Sequence record: MT968995.1
Origin: Escherichia phage vB_EcoM_WL-3
Reading direction: 5' to 3' (one strand)
Length of the DNA: 64,000 nt
The position numbers were made by a program, and so were the translations under genes. Shown here piece by piece: positions 5,583-61,686 of the stretch; the stretch's first letter is position 1, and every line of letters starts with the position of its first letter. The notes under the pieces were generated by a model that was not told the origin of the DNA, searched no databases, and saw only the letters and a program-made list of their open reading frames with translations.

Positions 5583-5797
5583 TAATAAATTTCCTTCCAG
5601 TAAGTTGTGCCATCCTCAGTAATTTCACGAAATACACCGTAAATTGGTTGTTTATCACCAACCTTTTCATACACATAAACCGAAGTCAAGTGAGTAAACT
5701 TAACGGTATGTTCTTTTTGAACTACTACCAAATCTGGATCGAATAATACATCTTCAAATTCGTCATTAGTGCAGTTCTGAACAATTTTACGTTTCAT
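5582..5797 (-). CDS. hypothetical protein (71 aa; possibly cef-like)
   Basis: size and position match T4 cef; ATGA overlap with the upstream gene. Confidence 0.4.
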
Positions 5798-5810
5798 TAC
5801 AATTTCCTCA

Positions 5811-6092
5811 TTAATTGAACAGTGGAGCGATGCGTTTCAGAAGAGTAGCAGCACCTTTGGCAAATTTTACATCATGAAAAACAGTTTCTTCTTCCGTTAC
5901 AACACGAACTTTAATGTTTTCACAATCCCAATTTTTACGAACAATCTTCAAAAGCTGCAGTAAATCTTTACATTCTGCAATATCGATAACACATCCACGA
6001 GAATCTTCCATTATCGCACGATAACCATAAGCCATACCATAATCGTTGAAAGATTGTTCGATGATAATTAAGTTTTCCATTTTATTCTCCAA
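5811..6092 (-). CDS. hypothetical protein (93 aa)
   Basis: ORF in track with consistent strand and packing. Confidence 0.45.
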   Translation of the reverse strand: MENKMENLIIIEQSFNDYGMAYGYRAIMEDSRGCVIDIAECKDLLQLLKIVRKNWDCENIKVRVVTEEETVFHDVKFAKGAATLLKRIAPLFN

Positions 6093-39490: not shown

Positions 39491-39961
39491 TTAATCATGT
39501 TTCCACACCCCATCGGTATTTGACCAAAGTCGCTGATTATCTGATCCTCGCCACAGCTTTTTGGTCGGAAGATTTTTCTCATACTTCCCATCAATAATAA
39601 CATCAACATATTTAAGCATTTCTAGTTGTTTAATATCTTCAAATTTATATCCTGTCCACAACCAAATGCTTTTATTGGGATAAAGATTTTTTACTGTTTG
39701 AACAATGCAATGAACAACATCTCGGTTATCAGGATAGAGAGGGTCTCCTCCAGTTATAGTTAATCCTTCTATATAATCATTATTCAAACATTCAATTAAT
39801 TGTTCTAGTGTTTCACCAGTGAATGGAACGCCATTTCTAGCATTCCATGTTGATTTATTATAACACCCTTCACATTTATGCAAACACCCCGTAACGAAAA
39901 GAACGACCCTGCATCCAGGGCCATTCACAAAATCACAGGGATAAAATCTATCGTAATTCAT
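39491..39961 (-). CDS. nrdG: anaerobic ribonucleotide reductase activating protein (radical SAM)
   Basis: 156 aa; CxxxCxxC cluster motif GCLHKCEGC. Confidence 0.9.
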   Translation of the reverse strand: MNYDRFYPCDFVNGPGCRVVLFVTGCLHKCEGCYNKSTWNARNGVPFTGETLEQLIECLNNDYIEGLTITGGDPLYPDNRDVVHCIVQTVKNLYPNKSIWLWTGYKFEDIKQLEMLKYVDVIIDGKYEKNLPTKKLWRGSDNQRLWSNTDGVWKHD

Positions 39962-41775
39962 TGGTGTTTAACCCTATGCATGATTTCTTTATTTTTGCCG
40001 AGATTAAATCCGCGTTCATTCGGATTTCCCAAATAACCACAAGTTCTTCTTATTGTGTTCATCTTTTTAGGATCAGTTTCTCCACAAATAGAACAAACAA
40101 ACCCGTTTTCAGTAGGAGTCATTTCATGGGTACTTCCGCATGTAAAACATTTATCTACTGGCATGTTAACACCAAAATAATCTAAATGTTGTGCAGCATA
40201 ATCCCATACAGCCTCAAGACCTTTTAGGTTATTTTTCATATCAGGAAGTTCAACATAAGAAATGTGACCACCTGTCGCAATGAAATGATATGGGGCTTCG
40301 CGAGAAATTTTTTCAAACGGAGTAATATTTTCTTCTACTGAAACGTGGAAACTATTAGTGTACCAGCCTTTATCGGTAACATCTTTTACACTTCCATATT
40401 TCTCAGTATCAAGTTTACAGAAGCGATAACAAAGGTTTTCAGCAGGTGTAGAATACAAGCTAAAAGCAAAACCAGTTCTTTCAGTCCACTGCTTAAGACG
40501 AGCATTCATTTTAGTTAAAATTTCCTGTCCAATATCACGACCGACAAGAATATTCAATTCGTGAATACCAATGTATCCCAAAGACACTGAACTTCTACCG
40601 TTTTTAAATAACTCAATTATATCGTCATCAGGTTTAAGACGAACCCCGAATGCACCTTCTTGGTAAAGAATAGGAGCAACAGTAGCTTTAACTCCTTTTA
40701 AGGAACTAATTCTACACATCAATGCTTCAAAACACAAATCCATTCGTTCATTGAACAATTCGGCAAATTTCTGTTCATTGAACTGTGTTCCAATATAAGA
40801 ATCTAGCGCAATGCGAGGAAGATTCAGTGTTACAACACCAAGATTATTACGTCCATCAAGAATTTCATTACCAGTCGAATCTTTCCATACACTCAAGAAA
40901 CTACGACAACCCATTGGAGAAACAGGAATAGATGAACCGGTGATAGCTTTATTGTTCTTAGCCGAAATGATGTCAGGATACATTCTTTTACTTGCACACT
41001 CTAGAGCAAGCTGCTTAATATCATAGTTCGGATCGTCTTTATAAAGATTAACACCTTCTTCAACGAACATAACAAGTTTAGGGAAAATAGGAGTTATCCC
41101 GTCACGACCAAGGCCTTTAATACGATTTTTCAGAATTGCTTTCTGAATCATTCGTTCAGTCCAGTCAGTTCCCATGCCAAATGTAATTGTTACAAAAGGC
41201 GTTTGTCCGTTTGAACTAAAGAGAGTATTTACTTCATATTCATAAGCTTGGAATGCATCGTATACGTCTTTTTCTGTTTTAGATTGTGCATAATTCAACG
41301 CATCAGCGATTTGCCATTTTTCTGCATCCTCAATATGTTTTGCATAGGTGCGTTTAACATAAGGAGAAAGGACTTTATCTACATTCGCAAAAGTCGTTCC
41401 ACCATATTGATGGGAAGCAACCTGTGCAGTAATTTGTGCCATAATTGCAGTAGCAACACCGATTGATTTAGGAGTTTCAATCTGTGCATTACCGAGCTTA
41501 AATCCGTTCTCAAGCATTCCTTTTAAATCTACTAAACAGCAATTAGTAAATGGAAGAGCAGGGGAATAATCAATATCATGGAAATGAATAATTCCGCTTT
41601 CATGCGCTTTCATAATAAAAGACGGGACCATATTTTTGGCAATGTGTTTAGACACAATACCAGCCATAAGGTCCCGTTGAGTTGGAAAAACACGAGAATC
41701 TTTATTAGCATTCTCGTTTAAAAGGTCTTTATTAGTTTTATGAATCAATCCTTCAATTTCTTTTTCAATTGTCAT
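39958..41775 (-). CDS. nrdD: anaerobic ribonucleoside-triphosphate reductase, intron-free
   Basis: 605-aa continuous ORF; C-terminal glycyl radical motif RRTCGYLG; T4 nrdD carries a group I intron that is absent here. Confidence 0.9.
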   Translation of the reverse strand: MTIEKEIEGLIHKTNKDLLNENANKDSRVFPTQRDLMAGIVSKHIAKNMVPSFIMKAHESGIIHFHDIDYSPALPFTNCCLVDLKGMLENGFKLGNAQIETPKSIGVATAIMAQITAQVASHQYGGTTFANVDKVLSPYVKRTYAKHIEDAEKWQIADALNYAQSKTEKDVYDAFQAYEYEVNTLFSSNGQTPFVTITFGMGTDWTERMIQKAILKNRIKGLGRDGITPIFPKLVMFVEEGVNLYKDDPNYDIKQLALECASKRMYPDIISAKNNKAITGSSIPVSPMGCRSFLSVWKDSTGNEILDGRNNLGVVTLNLPRIALDSYIGTQFNEQKFAELFNERMDLCFEALMCRISSLKGVKATVAPILYQEGAFGVRLKPDDDIIELFKNGRSSVSLGYIGIHELNILVGRDIGQEILTKMNARLKQWTERTGFAFSLYSTPAENLCYRFCKLDTEKYGSVKDVTDKGWYTNSFHVSVEENITPFEKISREAPYHFIATGGHISYVELPDMKNNLKGLEAVWDYAAQHLDYFGVNMPVDKCFTCGSTHEMTPTENGFVCSICGETDPKKMNTIRRTCGYLGNPNERGFNLGKNKEIMHRVKHQ

Positions 41776-56496: not shown

Positions 56497-56684
56497 TATT
56501 CTTCTACATGTTGTTTACGACCTTTCTTATCAATAAAGGTATATTCAACGAATGTTCCAATGTAGTCTTTATCGACATCATGTGGACTATTAATTGGGCA
56601 TTTAGTACGGCAAATGCGTTCCCATTGACGAATAATTTCCGCTTTATTTTTAGGGTCAAACGGATGCGGGTAATGTACTTTCAT
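56472..56684 (-). CDS. hypothetical protein (tk.3 position)
   Basis: 70-aa ORF. Confidence 0.4.
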   Translation of the reverse strand: MKVHYPHPFDPKNKAEIIRQWERICRTKCPINSPHDVDKDYIGTFVEYTFIDKKGRKQHVEEYCLKVTWL

Positions 56685-57135
56685 AATCCACCACTATTAA
56701 ATCAATATCAGGAGTAAACATGTCGATTAATTTAGAAACCTTATCCCAATCACCGCCAGCAATACCACAACCTATGCGTGGAATGTAAATTACTGGTTTA
56801 AACAAAAGGGTCTCTGCCTGTAGATTTAATTCTATCATGCAGTTTACTAAAGCACCATAATCAAGATTAGGACCCGGTTCGTATTGTGTATACAGGTTAT
56901 AGCATATACCAAATCCTGTAGGATTATGTTTAAAAACAATAGACATATCGCCTAATTTATCACGAGAACCGTACTCGGTAGTGGTTTTATCTATTTCTAA
57001 AATTTTAGGATAGGCCCTTGCTAATTGACCCGCTACACCTGAACCCATAGTATGAAAACAGTTGCACCCGTGCGCAATAATATTACCTTGAAGAAATAGG
57101 GCGACAATATCGCCCTTGATATATTTTACAATCAT
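56656..57135 (-). CDS. macro-domain protein (ADP-ribose binding/processing)
   Basis: YIKGDIVALFLQGNIIAHGCNCFHTMGSGVAGQLARAYP and IYIPRIGCGIAGGDWDKV resemble the two macro-domain signature regions. Confidence 0.55.
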   Translation of the reverse strand: MIVKYIKGDIVALFLQGNIIAHGCNCFHTMGSGVAGQLARAYPKILEIDKTTTEYGSRDKLGDMSIVFKHNPTGFGICYNLYTQYEPGPNLDYGALVNCMIELNLQAETLLFKPVIYIPRIGCGIAGGDWDKVSKLIDMFTPDIDLIVVDYESTLPASV

Positions 57136-57473
57136 CTAGTACTCAATCCTCGATTATAAGAATCTACCAAACGGTCAACCATTGAATGACAAGCGGCTTT
57201 ATCTTTCTCCTCCGCAACTGAACATTCTAAGGTATTCCACTTTTTAGCATATCGTTTTAATAAAGTATCGTTCTTGTATCTACTTGATTTATCTCTTTCT
57301 CCGTCTTTATATGCATATATTAATTTCTGCGCAAATTCAGCTTGGCATGCTTTATTTTTCCCACAATAATCCGCGGCAGTACGGTTTACATACTCTCTAA
57401 TTTCAGTGTATGATGTATTTGCTAACGCAGAAAATGAAATTAATCCTATACATAAAACCAAAATTTTAGTCAT
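57132..57473 (-). CDS. secreted protein (vs position)
   Basis: 113 aa with signal peptide MTKILVLCIGLISFSALA. Confidence 0.45.
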   Translation of the reverse strand: MTKILVLCIGLISFSALANTSYTEIREYVNRTAADYCGKNKACQAEFAQKLIYAYKDGERDKSSRYKNDTLLKRYAKKWNTLECSVAEEKDKAACHSMVDRLVDSYNRGLSTR

Positions 57474-58011
57474 TTACTATTTCCAAAAGTTTATTATTTT
57501 TAAGGTAATTAGCCTTTTCTAGGACTTCAGAAGCATATTTAGAACCAGCTTTAACATTCCATCCCGAATTATAAGAGGATATTGCTTTTCTTATATCGCC
57601 CTTATGTATATTTAACCAATAAGAAAGTTCAATGTACGCCCAGGAAGCTGAATTGGACCGTTTATTCAACATTCTTTTTATTTCAGCATCGGTCATATTA
57701 TAACCAAGTTCCTTGACTCTCGCTCGCATAGTAGGCAAATAATTTTGGAACATTCCATAGGCATGATGCTTTGGTTTAGATTTTAAATTAACTCCGCCAG
57801 AGCTTTCTTGCCATAAAATAGCAGCCATTATATGACCTAATCCGCTCTTGTGGATATTTTTGTGTGTTTTATATTTTCCATCCTTAGAAAATTGTTCCCC
57901 GAATTGATACGCGTAACGCATGTTATCGAGTTGGACATTACTGAAAGTATGCTCGGAGCTATGTGCCATCATTGAAATGGCCAATAGACCAGCGAGTAGT
58001 GCTTTTCTCAT
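57466..58011 (-). CDS. lytic transglycosylase-like periplasmic protein
   Basis: signal peptide plus AAILWQESSGG ... YGMFQ, resembling the SLT catalytic motif. Confidence 0.55.
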   Translation of the reverse strand: MRKALLAGLLAISMMAHSSEHTFSNVQLDNMRYAYQFGEQFSKDGKYKTHKNIHKSGLGHIMAAILWQESSGGVNLKSKPKHHAYGMFQNYLPTMRARVKELGYNMTDAEIKRMLNKRSNSASWAYIELSYWLNIHKGDIRKAISSYNSGWNVKAGSKYASEVLEKANYLKNNKLLEIVND

Positions 58012-58018
58012 GCTTACC

Positions 58019-58480
58019 TCATTGAGTTTTAATTACTGCTTTAGAAGCCTTTCCTGGTAAACGACGACTATTGATAATTGCCATCCTGCATTGAAGCGAC
58101 GGGTCTTTGAACTTCGCATTAGGTTTACAAACTGTAAATCCAAGCCAAAGATTTCCATCTGTGATTTCTAAACGTCCAGGACGGTATTCAACCCCATCAA
58201 TAAAATCCTCATCAATGTCAGGACGCGGAGGCATACTCAGGAATTCATTAACTTCTAAAACATGGTCTTTTATTTTGTGGAATAATTCAAAAACATATGT
58301 CTCATCAATCTCCCGTTGAATTGCACGATCAAGAAGATGCTGAGAATATTTTAGATGAAACGATGAGACCCCTGCTGCTTTTGATGCCTCACGAATCTCA
58401 TTGTTAATTTGACGAAACTCCGACTCAAAGTGACGACGAAGCTTATTTCGACGGATAAAAACTTCTGTATTGATAGTCAT
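58019..58480 (-). CDS. regB: RegB site-specific endoribonuclease
   Basis: 153 aa; size and position as T4 RegB. Confidence 0.85.
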   Translation of the reverse strand: MTINTEVFIRRNKLRRHFESEFRQINNEIREASKAAGVSSFHLKYSQHLLDRAIQREIDETYVFELFHKIKDHVLEVNEFLSMPPRPDIDEDFIDGVEYRPGRLEITDGNLWLGFTVCKPNAKFKDPSLQCRMAIINSRRLPGKASKAVIKTQ

Positions 58481-58504
58481 GTTGTTCTCCTCTTAACTGA
58501 TAGA

Positions 58505-58540
58505 AAAATTATACCACAGTCAAGAGGAAAAGTAAACAGT
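58505..58540 (-). promoter_or_regulatory. early promoter upstream of regB
   Basis: minus strand GTTTACTTTTCCTCTTGACTGTGGTATAAT. Confidence 0.6.
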
Positions 58541-58860
58541 TATTCTTTAAATCTAATCAATTTATTCATAGACTTTGAAACTTCTGCACGAACCTCATGT
58601 AGATTTTTGAGCTGTTCAAGACGCTGCTCATAGTAAGCAATTTCATCTTCTTCGAGACAGTCCTGTGAATCTTCTTTAAGATACCGTGCATAGTCCTGGA
58701 AAGCGTTACGGACTACTTCCTGGAAGTCATCAAGACTTTGAATTTTCTTAGGAGCAGCAGACACACGACGAGGGGCAGTATAATACTCATAACCAAACCC
58801 TGCGCTTAATTGAGCCATTAATATTTTTCCTCTGGTTGGAACACAGCACGACAAGCCCAC
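58540..58860 (-). CDS. hypothetical protein (vs.3 position)
   Basis: 106-aa ORF. Confidence 0.45.
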
Positions 58861-59120
58861 ATACTAGCTTCTTTGAGTTTCGTTTTAGCAATAGCTAACT
58901 GATCGAGGCTTTCAGCATAATTCTTCGCGAGTTCAAAGTCTTCGCAATTATCTAGTGCTTCCCAGAATTCATCATATAAAGCATCAAAGATAAGTCCTAA
59001 ACGAACTTCAGCGTCTTTAATAGCATTTACTTTACCGATTTTTTCGTCGGTATGTGGCTTATAACCTTTAATATCTTCAATCATATTTGACTTCCTCACC
59101 AGTACATAAATCGTATTCAA
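58818..59120 (-). CDS. Acb2-like protein (vs.4 position; anti-CBASS cyclic-nucleotide sponge in T4)
   Basis: second ORF upstream of regB, as vs.4 in T4; probable start at internal MIEDIKGYK (~89 aa); assignment is positional. Confidence 0.5.
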
Positions 59121-59298
59121 CTAAACGAATAGGTTCATGAATGCCATATCCCTGAACAGAAATTTCTGTCGTAGGATAAATTCCACTAATATCACCCATA
59201 TTCCACGCTTCATTAAATTGCTGTTCGCCTGAATTACTAAACCATTCTGCGAAAGCATTTAGCACATCTTCAGAACCTTCAATAATTATCTTTGCCAT
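59077..59298 (-). CDS. hypothetical protein (vs.5 position)
   Basis: 73-aa ORF. Confidence 0.4.
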   Translation of the reverse strand: MAKIIIEGSEDVLNAFAEWFSNSGEQQFNEAWNMGDISGIYPTTEISVQGYGIHEPIRLVEYDLCTGEEVKYD

Positions 59299-59672
59299 TA
59301 CAAACTCTCAGTAAAGGTACGAGCGATAACGTCGCGCTGCTGTTCCGGAGTCAGAGAGTTAAAGCGAACTGCATAACCGGATACACGGATGGTCAGCTGC
59401 GGATATTTTTCCGGATGCTTAACTGCATCTTCCAGAGTTTCACGACGCAGAACGTTAACGTTCAGGTGTTGACCACCTTCAATTTTAACTGTAGGTTGTG
59501 TTTCAATTTCAATTTCACGGGCATGCAAACCATAGAAAATTTCTGGGTCTACAAAAGAGTCCTCTTTAAAAGTTTTAGAAACAATAATTCGTGCTTGAAT
59601 ACCATCTTCAAAATAAATAGTACCTTTATGTGTGCCTTCAAGAATTTGATATGCTTTCATATAACCTCTCAA
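59298..59672 (-). CDS. autonomous glycyl radical cofactor-like protein (GrcA/YfiD-like)
   Basis: 124 aa; C-terminal glycyl radical signature [27 protein letters not shown]. Confidence 0.7.
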
Positions 59673-59998
59673 TTAGAAAATAAATTTATCCAAGATTGCT
59701 CTTTAATTAAAAATGGCTCAGAATCATATGCCATTAAACTTTGGGTAATTAGTCCTTTAAAAGGCCCATCAATAAATTCCATGGTAAAATATGGAATTTT
59801 ATTCATTAATCTTGCATTAGGAGCAGTGCACAAAACTCTGCATCCTCTGAATACGCCTTTTTGTAATTTGTATTGCTTAGGATAAAATTCGCTCAAGGCG
59901 TTGTTATTTGCCAAAATTTCAAAATGATTCACCAATTTATTTTTAATAGTTTTTGGCGAAAAATAAAGATATTCGAAAAGTTGCGTATCTGTCATCAT
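59669..59998 (-). CDS. hypothetical protein (vs.7 position; 109 aa from [10 protein letters not shown])
   Basis: trimmed from track ORF 59669-60049. Confidence 0.4.
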
Positions 59999-60582
59999 TG
60001 CATTCCAATTACGAAAAACTGTGGACGAGTAATACCACCAATGCAACATTTACTATTGCAACAGTGTTGCACAGTTTCAATATGAATATCGTAAATTTTA
60101 TCCATATCAGGAGATTTAACAGGCTCATCGATTATATACAAAATTCGAGAAAGCGATAAACCTCTGAACTTGCTACCTCTATTACCAACAAAACTACGGA
60201 CAGAATCAGTAAATAAGCGGAATCGAATATCATCATTAGAATAACGTGAAAATTCCTTTTTAATGTTATTTGCAGAAATTTTAGCGTAAGCTGAAGTATT
60301 AGAAAGAACAATAACTGTTCCGCCATCATACAACCAATTAGCAGCAAAGTTAGTCACAGCAATTGATTTACCAGATTGACGTCCACCGTCTAGTCGAAGT
60401 GTGCAATACTGTTTAAGCAAGTCTTCAAATGGCAGGATATATTCGTTTTTACAAATTTCTTCTACTCTAGCATCAGAATGGTGTGTAAAAGCATTCATCA
60501 GGGATAGATAAGGACCAGTTAAAAATGTTATCATTTTATTCTCTCTAAATTTGGGCCATTCCATGGCGCATGAATTGTCCAT
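59995..60582 (-). CDS. small P-loop NTPase (vs.8 position)
   Basis: Walker A GGRQSGKS and Walker B-like ILYIIDEP; probable start at the internal Met at 60534. Confidence 0.5.
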   Translation of the reverse strand: MDNSCAMEWPKFRENKMITFLTGPYLSLMNAFTHHSDARVEEICKNEYILPFEDLLKQYCTLRLDGGRQSGKSIAVTNFAANWLYDGGTVIVLSNTSAYAKISANNIKKEFSRYSNDDIRFRLFTDSVRSFVGNRGSKFRGLSLSRILYIIDEPVKSPDMDKIYDIHIETVQHCCNSKCCIGGITRPQFFVIGMQ

Positions 60583-60599
60583 TTCTGTATTTACCCATT

Positions 60600-60675
60600 A
60601 CCGCACTTGGGCTCGACCTTATTACAGGTTGGTGGGAATCCCTCACAGAATCATGAGGTCCAGGTTATTCCCATG
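60600..60675. other. GC-rich structured element between the P-loop gene and denV
   Basis: GGGAAT...ATTCCC outer stem enclosing CCTCA-CAGAATCA-TGAGG; GC content well above the local average; no ORF. Confidence 0.4.
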
Positions 60676-60679
60676 TTAT

Positions 60680-61096
60680 TTAAATGTAAATATTTTTGCC
60701 GTAATACTTATACCAGTGTGGCTTCATTAAAATTTTTTCATCGAGTCGTTGTTGACTCAACTTAATAGCTGATTTGCATGGATTATAATCATTTTTCCAT
60801 TCTACTGGAATATCGCTGATGTCAGGAACTTCAGTATCTTTTATACTGAACCCGCGTTTTAAGCATTCCGTTATAATGTCCGATTGACGCTTTCGCAAAA
60901 ATTCTAACTTATCGTAAAAGAAAGTAACATGACCAGAACCTAAAATAAATTTAGAAGATATTTTAAAATCTTTAACGCGCTTACCGTTTGCCACATGCTT
61001 ACGAACTATACCAAAAACACGCGGCAATTCACGGTATTCTGCGATTAAATGTTGATCAGCAAGTTCAGATACTAAAGTCAAATTAATACGAGTCAT
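60680..61096 (-). CDS. denV: endonuclease V (pyrimidine dimer DNA glycosylase)
   Basis: 138 aa starting [17 protein letters not shown]; matches T4 DenV from recall. Confidence 0.9.
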
Positions 61097-61155
61097 TTTA
61101 TCCCTCCAAGTAACTGTGAATATACTATCACAATTCTAGGAGAAAGTAAATAGCT

Positions 61156-61686
<531 letters not shown>

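Follow-up and report, generated by a model that had tools for sequence, protein, structure and literature searches.

Positions 58540-60534 of the window, the 64,000-nucleotide stretch of Escherichia phage vB_EcoM_WL-3 DNA (record MT968995.1) analyzed here, very probably constitute the vs.8-vs.7-vs.6-vs.5-vs.4-vs.3 early operon of Tequatrovirus, a cassette of non-structural accessory genes acting on the host. The block is ordinary save for vs.6, half of which reproduces E. coli DNA letter for letter. The vs.3-vs.8 cluster as such is already known, and its recognition here adds nothing new.

Architecture of the vs.3-vs.8 block

Six consecutive, tightly packed ORFs on the minus strand fill the interval, which is flanked by regB (58019-58480) and denV (60680-61096). 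The early-operon reading is based on synteny, on DNA identity to tequatroviruses (98.7% for 58000-61100 against Escherichia phage AV121) and on protein identities of 94–98% to T4 Vs.3, Vs.4, Vs.6, Vs.7 and Vs.8. The same 58000-61100 segment matched 894 phage records, and those that use T4 gene names label the six genes vs.3, vs.4, vs.5, vs.6, Vs.7 and Vs.8. The reading is further supported by the gene overlaps, the Shine-Dalgarno sites and the early T4 RNAs; in T4 the RNAs of all six genes are early, and proteins were detected for five of the six. The earlier note had recognized the block by position as T4 vs.3-vs.8, and this was borne out by the synteny, the T4 gene names and the protein identities. 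Its right end at 60582 did not hold: the longest ORF begins there, with an in-frame ATG upstream of the conserved start of vs.8, which lies at 60534. The ATG at 60534 was chosen, giving a protein of 179 aa, because all homologues begin with M-x-TFLT, because a GAGAG Shine-Dalgarno sequence accompanies it, and because the extension that brings the annotated T4 Vs.8 to 219 aa is not in frame here.

A simple scan of the coding strand of the 145-nt denV-vs.8 spacer found no consensus promoter or terminator, the spacer gave no Rfam match, and its RNA fold was not significant (z = 0.40). Inside vs.8 lies a MotA-type middle-promoter-like site, GCTTTCTCGAATTTTGTATATAAT (60131..60154, minus strand), which is a pattern match only; in the Mosigvirus SA35RD a site is annotated at the equivalent position. 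At the downstream end of the block, a T4 early-promoter-like site for regB, GTTTACT...TGTGGTATAAT, occupies 58508..58537 on the minus strand.

The glycyl-radical protein Vs.6 and its host-derived half

The vs.6 gene (59298..59660, minus strand) encodes a GrcA-type autonomous glycyl-radical cofactor of 120 aa that corresponds to T4 Y06I, with which it shares 118 of 120 residues. Within the motif RVSGYAV, the radical glycine G95 is encoded at 59376-59378 on the minus strand. That the fourth ORF is a GrcA-type protein, as had been noted from the sequence earlier, is confirmed by this motif, by the Pfam Gly_radical domain (PF01228, 2.2e-18) and by a match to GrcA in PDB 6OWR (4.6e-42). Like E. coli GrcA/YfiD, the protein is small and autonomous, and its last 60 residues, RVSGYAV included, are identical to those of GrcA; it differs in being seven residues shorter and in its N-terminal 59 residues, which are phage-specific and encoded by DNA only about 50% identical to grcA. 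Because of this phage-specific half, the score against the NCBIfam GrcA equivalog TIGR04365 (154.6 bits) stays below the cut-off of 170. By these comparisons the Vs.6 product is a phage variant of GrcA, not an orthologue.

The identity extends to the DNA. A patch of 175 nt (59308..59482, minus strand) matches E. coli grcA with 100% identity, and the GC content of vs.6 is 0.48 in its 3' 186 nt versus 0.32 in the 5' part. A spike of identity to Mosigvirus coincides exactly with the patch. The junctions of the patch recur unchanged in over 600 independent phage records, as well as in Mosigvirus and the T4 reference. Judged from this identity, the patch is host-derived and common to Tequatrovirus and Mosigvirus. 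Through homologous recombination with host DNA, E. coli grcA sequence has very probably taken the place of the gene's 3' half. The shared junctions of the coliphages fit one capture; repeated conversion from different E. coli alleles gained no support, as the private substitutions in the Mosigvirus patch match none of the alleles among 5426 E. coli genomes. Klebsiella jiaodaviruses apparently have an older counterpart of the patch, of Klebsiella type. A tentative proposal is that host DNA may have recombined into the glycyl-radical half of vs.6 more than once, yielding the E. coli patch of Tequatrovirus and Mosigvirus as well as the older Klebsiella-type sequence of Jiaodavirus, by which the T-even spare part for pyruvate formate-lyase (PFL) would be kept matched to the current host. 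In the searchable literature, outside which lie the 2001 paper on Y06I and the T4 genome review of 2003, no report of host-gene copying into vs.6 was found.

Two other explanations bear on this gene. Contamination with DNA of the propagation host would leave just such a perfectly matching stretch of 175 nt, but an assembly or contamination artefact can be practically dismissed, since the same junctions recur in all those independent records and the patch lies in frame within the phage gene with phage-type codons on either side. The other concerns the partner of Vs.6. The earlier note had suggested oxygen-damaged NrdD, the anaerobic ribonucleotide reductase of the phage itself, as the enzyme being rescued. 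NrdD is indeed encoded in the window (39958-41775, Pfam NRDD 1.6e-171) and is likewise a glycyl-radical enzyme cleaved by oxygen, and spare parts for other enzymes of this class have been speculated upon (PMC8683613). A spare part, however, must stand in for the lost C-terminal glycyl-radical domain, and that of Vs.6 matches GrcA and PflB, its C-terminal part being identical to PflB residues 697-759 at 49 of 63 positions (78%, E = 4.8e-26). BLASTP of Vs.6 against the phage NrdD gave E = 2.6 with an aligned region off the Gly motif, which reads RRTCGYLG in NrdD versus IRVSGYAV in Vs.6, and none of the 34 PDB matches of Vs.6 is an NrdD structure. T4 NrdD, moreover, has its own activase, NrdG. 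Service to NrdD is thus highly improbable.

The partner of Vs.6 can instead be regarded as established, via its near-identity to the characterized T4 protein, as the host PFL. T4 Y06I restores oxygen-cleaved PFL and is reported to be activated by PFL-AE (Wagner 2001, in both cases as cited in PMC8683613). By analogy, the host PFL-activating enzyme would install a glycyl radical in Vs.6, which would dock onto oxygen-cleaved host PFL, so that production of formate and acetyl-CoA would be restored under micro-aerobic conditions. Because the patch is host-identical, Vs.6 matches the host residue for residue where the protein must fit PFL and its activase.

The adjoining sponges Vs.3 and Vs.4

The second ORF, vs.4 (58818..59084, minus strand), encodes an 88-aa protein assigned from sequence as Acb2, a hexameric cyclic-dinucleotide sponge with anti-CBASS activity. 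It matches Pfam Acb2_Tad1_hairpin (PF24729; 1.5e-20, 73.6 bits against a cut-off of 27) and, over its full length, the crystallized T4 protein in PDB 7UQ2 (8.2e-54, 84 of 88 residues identical). In length, gene position and functional residues it resembles T4 Vs.4/Acb2 (Jenson 2023, Huiting 2023). Checked against the residue list in PMC10097602, the cGAMP contacts Y8, H11, K23, S74, R79 and F82 and the hexamer-interface residues L29, F33, A66, A73 and A77 are all found at matching positions, and T12 is kept as well. Four substitutions, E13D, C50F, F52L and T64A, distinguish it from T4 Acb2; in T4-Acb2, T64 has been suggested, along with other residues, to clash with cA3. The identification of this ORF as Acb2, already made in the earlier note, therefore stands on an end-to-end alignment with all pocket residues kept, and neither a failure to align nor a loss of those residues, which had been named as grounds for abandoning it, was found. 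The T4 protein binds 3',3'-cGAMP with a Kd of about 30 nM and was shown to inhibit CBASS (PMC10097602). The function of Vs.4 as Acb2 can be considered established via near-identity to that protein, and its hexamer would keep 3',3'-cGAMP and further cyclic dinucleotides away from CBASS effectors, leaving these untriggered.

The first ORF, vs.3 (58540..58818, minus strand), had been given no sponge identity, yet its 92-aa product corresponds to the characterized TadIV-1, a dimeric N7-cADPR sponge directed against type IV Thoeris and published in 2026 (Chen 2026, PMC13243611). Residues 1-92 match the UPEC07 TadIV-1 structure (PDB 9wiw_A, 2.7e-38), and 90 of 92 residues are identical to T4 Vs.3. 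Like T4 Vs.3, the protein belongs to the long form (over 80 aa), which has the N-terminal loop, and it keeps R17, R18 and K24; two substitutions set it apart from T4 Vs.3, V21A within the loop that binds the ligand and T64E in its helical portion. For T4 Vs.3, sequestration of N7-cADPR and rescue from type IV Thoeris have been shown (PMC13243611). Near-identity to this T4 protein likewise lets the TadIV-1 function of Vs.3 be taken as established. The flexible N-terminal loop of the dimer would sequester N7-cADPR, so that in type IV Thoeris the caspase-like effector stays untriggered.

Vs.8, Vs.7, Vs.5 and the anti-defense question

The vs.8 gene (59995..60534, minus strand) encodes a predicted single-domain RecA-like (ASCE) P-loop NTPase of 179 aa, identical to T4 Vs.8 at 169 positions. 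Its Walker A motif GGRQSGKS (G50-S57, 60364-60387, minus strand) and its Walker B motif with catalytic Glu, LYIIDE (L132-E137, 60124-60141, minus strand), are invariant in 18 homologues, as are R113 and R124. These motifs conform to the GxxxxGK[ST] and hhhhDE patterns of ASCE P-loop proteins and, together with the RecA-like fold of the model, uphold the view of the sixth ORF as a Walker A/B NTPase of ~180 aa that had been reached earlier. An exhaustive profile search matched small phage proteins only, a profile search of the PDB gave nothing significant (best E = 0.067), and Foldseek comparison of the model with the PDB returned generic ASCE matches only, with TM 0.4-0.5. A Pfam 'Conotoxin' match on the Cys-rich segment at residues 158-164 was set aside, the segment being variable and of low model confidence.

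Assignment to the larger ATPase families was rejected. A terminase large subunit comprises an ATPase and a C-terminal RNase H-like nuclease in about 400-600 aa, whereas Vs.8 has a single domain; compared with T4 gp17, Sf6 gp2 and P74-26 TerL, it has a terminase-like Walker A but no nuclease domain. An SF1/SF2 helicase requires two tandem RecA-like domains, whereas Vs.8, compared with the RecA1 domain of SF2 helicases, lacks both a lid and a second such domain. To neither group is its sequence significantly similar. Vs.8 may be a stand-alone RecA-like ATPase domain with nucleic acid or another protein as its likely substrate. Since it has no second RecA or nuclease domain, the model would imply action as an oligomer or with a partner, and this role is a guess. 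The 4-nt overlap (ATGA) of the vs.7 start with the vs.8 stop suggests translational coupling, which makes Vs.7 a candidate partner.

The vs.7 gene (59669..59998, minus strand) encodes 109 aa, of which 106 are identical to T4 Vs.7, a protein detected early. It matches phrog_2049, a family of unknown function. Searches of NCBIfam, PADLOC, the PDB and a copy of Pfam lacking PF26834 gave no match; PF26834 is precomputed on Vs.7 homologues. With only four usable sequences, the AF2 model had a pLDDT of 52 and was unusable. The 73-aa product of vs.5 (59077..59298, minus strand) matches phrog_1986, also of unknown function, over its full length, and this was the sole match in searches of protein-family databases. 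The gene shares 1 nt with the stop of vs.6 and 8 nt with the start of vs.4. In the copy of the T4 reference a frameshift follows residue 17, and the T4 proteome lists no Vs.5 protein. No literature on vs.5, vs.7 or vs.8 turned up under their gene names, UniProt names or accessions.

Two further readings concern these genes. Vs.8 might be a decaying terminase or helicase fragment with no function of its own, as its single domain belongs to a fold normally paired with a second one and residues 45-149 weakly match phrog_2, the terminase large subunit (TerL) family. Decay is very unlikely, however, given 36 invariant columns, Walker A and B included, among homologues down to 41% identity, a family length of about 175 aa that is constant across genera, and small look-alikes in many large phages; the T4 protein, furthermore, was detected early. 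The other possibility is that Vs.5, Vs.7 and Vs.8 also counter host defenses, which would make the block an anti-defense island and not a mixed cassette. Two of its six genes, adjoining each other, encode immune-signal sponges, all six are expressed early, and between Tequatrovirus and Mosigvirus identity falls to 15-63% in 60-nt windows over much of vs.3, in a portion of vs.4 and toward the 5' end of vs.7, a sharp divergence expected of arms-race genes. Against this, Vs.5, Vs.7 and Vs.8 have no homology to known anti-defense families, Vs.6 is clearly metabolic, and only Vs.3 was active when Vs.3-Vs.8 were each tried against type IV Thoeris in the TadIV-1 study (PMC13243611). An island devoted to anti-defense is thus rather unlikely, and a mixed cassette is preferred.

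In conclusion, experimentally established functions already exist for three of the six products, namely Acb2, TadIV-1 and Y06I. As two sponges lie side by side in T-even phages, Vs.5, Vs.7 and Vs.8 are reasonable candidates for screening. The 175-nt patch in vs.6 represents a clean natural case of DNA transfer from a host chromosome into a gene of a lytic phage, with its junctions mapped.

Operon layout of the vs.3-vs.8 region

The source phage is T4-like, of the genus Tequatrovirus, and a database search with 58000-61100 found 98.7% identity to Escherichia phage AV121 and matches in 894 phage records. Every gene of the region lies on the minus strand, and the gap between regB (58019-58480) and denV (60680-61096) is filled by six closely packed ORFs, named vs.3, vs.4, vs.5, vs.6, Vs.7 and Vs.8 in records with T4 nomenclature. 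This position, the names and the identities to T4 proteins (Vs.3 90/92, Vs.4 84/88, Vs.6 118/120, Vs.7 106/109, Vs.8 169/179) bear out the earlier note in its reading of a T4 vs.3-vs.8 block of six ORFs, but the right end it gave, 60582, is an upstream in-frame ATG of vs.8. The genes are transcribed in the order vs.8 (59995-60534, 179 aa), vs.7 (59669-59998, 109 aa), vs.6 (59298-59660, 120 aa), vs.5 (59077-59298, 73 aa), vs.4 (58818-59084, 88 aa) and vs.3 (58540-58818, 92 aa). Adjacent genes overlap by 4, 1, 8 and 1 nt and otherwise are 8 nt apart, a GAGG-like Shine-Dalgarno sequence precedes most starts, and the layout reads as a single operon. The gene downstream of the block, regB, is preceded by a putative T4-type early promoter of its own, GTTTACT...TGTGGTATAAT. 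A putative MotA-type middle promoter lies within vs.8 (60131-60154), and a site is annotated at the equivalent position in a Mosigvirus record. In T4, the supplement of PMC9697503 gives early RNAs for all six genes and lists Vs.3, Vs.4, Vs.6, Vs.7 and Vs.8 among detected proteins.

Around the block, denV is identical to T4 denV at 107/138 residues, against 94-99% for the genes to its left, and ipII and ipIII of T4 are absent between denV and e (60680-61650), which together point to a mosaic junction in or beside the denV-vs.8 spacer. On the other side, vs.1 (57466-58011, 181 aa), read by eye, has a signal-peptide-like N-terminal segment and a motif, WQESSGG, reminiscent of lytic transglycosylases.

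Two adjoining immune-signal sponges

Vs.4 matches the Pfam family Acb2_Tad1_hairpin (1.5e-20) and aligns end to end with crystallised T4 Vs.4 (7UQ2, 8.2e-54). In T4 Acb2, cGAMP is contacted by Y8, H11, K23, R79, F82 and S74, while L29, F33, A66, A73 and A77 lie where the subunits of the hexamer meet (Jenson et al., PMC10097602); each of these residues is kept at the same position here, so that the vs.4 product is identified as Acb2, as had been proposed. Four substitutions, E13D, C50F, F52L and T64A, separate it from the T4 protein. T4-Acb2 binds cyclic dinucleotides and not cA3, and T64 is among the residues thought to prevent cA3 binding (PMC10312549), but T64A alone is no evidence of altered ligand binding.

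The first ORF was the incomplete part of an interpretation that otherwise proved mostly right, being wrong only on NrdD. Over its full length Vs.3 matches PDB 9wiw_A (2.7e-38, PDB sequence search). The corresponding paper (Chen et al., Nat Commun 2026, PMC13243611) describes T4 Vs.3 as TadIV-1, a dimeric N7-cADPR sponge that inhibits type IV Thoeris. Only long forms of about 90 aa are functional, and R17, R18 and K24 are important (PMC13243611). Vs.3 here is a long form that keeps all three residues, differs from T4 Vs.3 by V21A and T64E, and is assigned as TadIV-1; with Acb2 next to it, the block would hold two adjoining immune-signal sponges. PDB 9WIW bears the misleading name 'Endoribonuclease', and homologues of Vs.3, Vs.7 and Vs.8 are wrongly labelled in the same way in several database entries, apparently a spill-over from regB. 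A few genes away from this N7-cADPR sponge lies a tk.4 homologue (56656-57135, 159 aa), annotated in related records as an ADP-ribose-binding Macro-domain protein.

The P-loop protein Vs.8, Vs.7 and Vs.5

The start of vs.8 is placed at the ATG at 60534 rather than at 60582, since M-x-TFLT opens every homologue, the annotated 40-residue N-terminal extension of the T4 protein (219 aa) falls in a different frame here, and a Shine-Dalgarno sequence is found at that ATG only. As coding sequence this extension (5794-5913 of the T4 locus L004) is not conserved, and the corresponding region of the window (60535-60646) forms a 33-aa ORF of its own, read in a different frame. Gene callers often choose the 195-aa ORF instead; cluster P0001 has 1051 member sequences.

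An alignment of 18 sequences has 36 invariant columns, including D49-K56 (Walker A, GGRQSGK), R113, R124 and, inside the Walker B segment LYIIDEP, I134-P138. The AF2 model of Vs.8 (pLDDT 80.7, pTM 0.82) predicts one five-stranded RecA-like domain preceded by two N-terminal helices, in agreement with the Walker A/B NTPase first recognised. Among 1.84 billion proteins the family is phage-confined and tiny, with 50 cluster representatives, nearly all of 140-185 aa. Foldseek with the model returned only generic ASCE matches. In BFVD the same fold occurs in many uncharacterised 145-170 aa proteins of large myoviruses and jumbo phages. A weak PHROGs match to the terminase large subunit was found; however, a helicase or terminase is rejected, the protein having a single RecA domain and no nuclease domain. 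Vs.8 may be an ATPase dependent on self-association or a partner, for which Vs.7 is a candidate because vs.7 and vs.8 appear to be translationally coupled.

Searches of Pfam, PHROGs, NCBIfam, PADLOC and PDB assigned no function to Vs.5 or Vs.7, and the Vs.7 structure model was of too low quality for use; Vs.7 homologues (P0069-P0078) carry the precomputed Pfam family PF26834. Vs.5, at 73 aa, represents its PHROG in full length; the T4 reference gene (58 aa; L004 4382-4558) is a version of it frameshifted after residue 17. Past the frameshift, T4 vs.5 follows the frame of an alternative ORF in the window (59121-59258), and T4 proteome data list no Vs.5 protein.

Vs.6 and its patch of host DNA

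Vs.6 carries a Gly_radical domain, its C-terminal 60 residues match E. coli GrcA at every position (6OWR, 4.6e-42), and it agrees with PflB residues 697-759 at 49/63 positions (4.8e-26), so the GrcA-type glycyl radical protein seen in the fourth ORF is upheld. Against the GrcA equivalog model of NCBIfam it reaches 154.6 bits, short of the cut-off of 170, a shortfall due to a phage-specific N-terminal half. T4 Y06I, like YfiD, is reportedly activated by PFL-AE and restores oxygen-cleaved PFL (Wagner 2001, as described in PMC8683613). Rescue of the phage's own oxygen-damaged NrdD (39958-41775, motif RRTCGYLG) had been suggested instead, but a spare part must replace the lost C-terminal domain, and there Vs.6 is unlike NrdD: BLASTP gave E = 2.6 with an alignment off the glycine, which leaves that idea unsupported. 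On sequence grounds Vs.6 is Y06I, with PFL rather than NrdD as its partner. In Jiaodavirus, Karamvirus, Slopekvirus and Pseudotevenvirus (L085-L090) acb2 directly follows vs.6 with a 1-nt stop/start overlap; Tequatrovirus and Mosigvirus alone have vs.5 in between.

The block itself is not new, and only one feature of it may be: a patch of host DNA in vs.6, unmentioned in the searchable literature, which excluded the 2001 Y06I paper and the T4 genome review. Positions 179-353 of the gene (59308-59482) are identical to E. coli grcA at 175/175 nt, the longest such stretch in T4 vs.6 being 138 nt, and of the 5432 E. coli records with a match, 5156 hold this 175-mer at ≥99% identity. The 3' 186 nt of the gene have a GC content of 0.48, the 5' part one of 0.32. 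Over those 186 nt the phage matches E. coli grcA at 182 positions, whereas the grcA genes of E. coli and Citrobacter agree at only 172, which identifies E. coli itself as the donor. In some E. coli genomes the segment has up to 21 matching places (median 2); of all the matching places, five are on plasmids. The final three codons of vs.6 (59298-59312), phage-type synonymous GAG AGT TTG for GAA AGC CTG in E. coli, terminate the patch and also make the GAGAG Shine-Dalgarno sequence of vs.5; a link between the two is uncertain, as T4 has GAA there.

Identity of the block to Mosigvirus is 33-93% per 60-nt window but 95-100% exactly at 59461-59341; the 5' half of vs.6 is only 80-90% identical in 144 phage records, while the 3' half is ≥95% identical in nearly all coliphage records. 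Repeated conversion within coliphages does not fit, for Tequatrovirus and Mosigvirus have the 5' junction in common and their patches each carry a few private substitutions matching no E. coli allele. The pattern fits a single capture that postdates the divergence of the flanking sequence and was then inherited or passed from phage to phage. In Karamvirus, Slopekvirus and Pseudotevenvirus vs.6 has no such patch, its 3' half being 76-84% identical to any sampled host grcA. In Jiaodavirus, GC steps from 0.37 to 0.55, and the 3' half matches grcA on gut-metagenome contigs (a Klebsiella-type LLDAVEH GrcA variant) at 170-176/186 against 158/186 for E. coli, which suggests that this genus made an older, independent capture of grcA.
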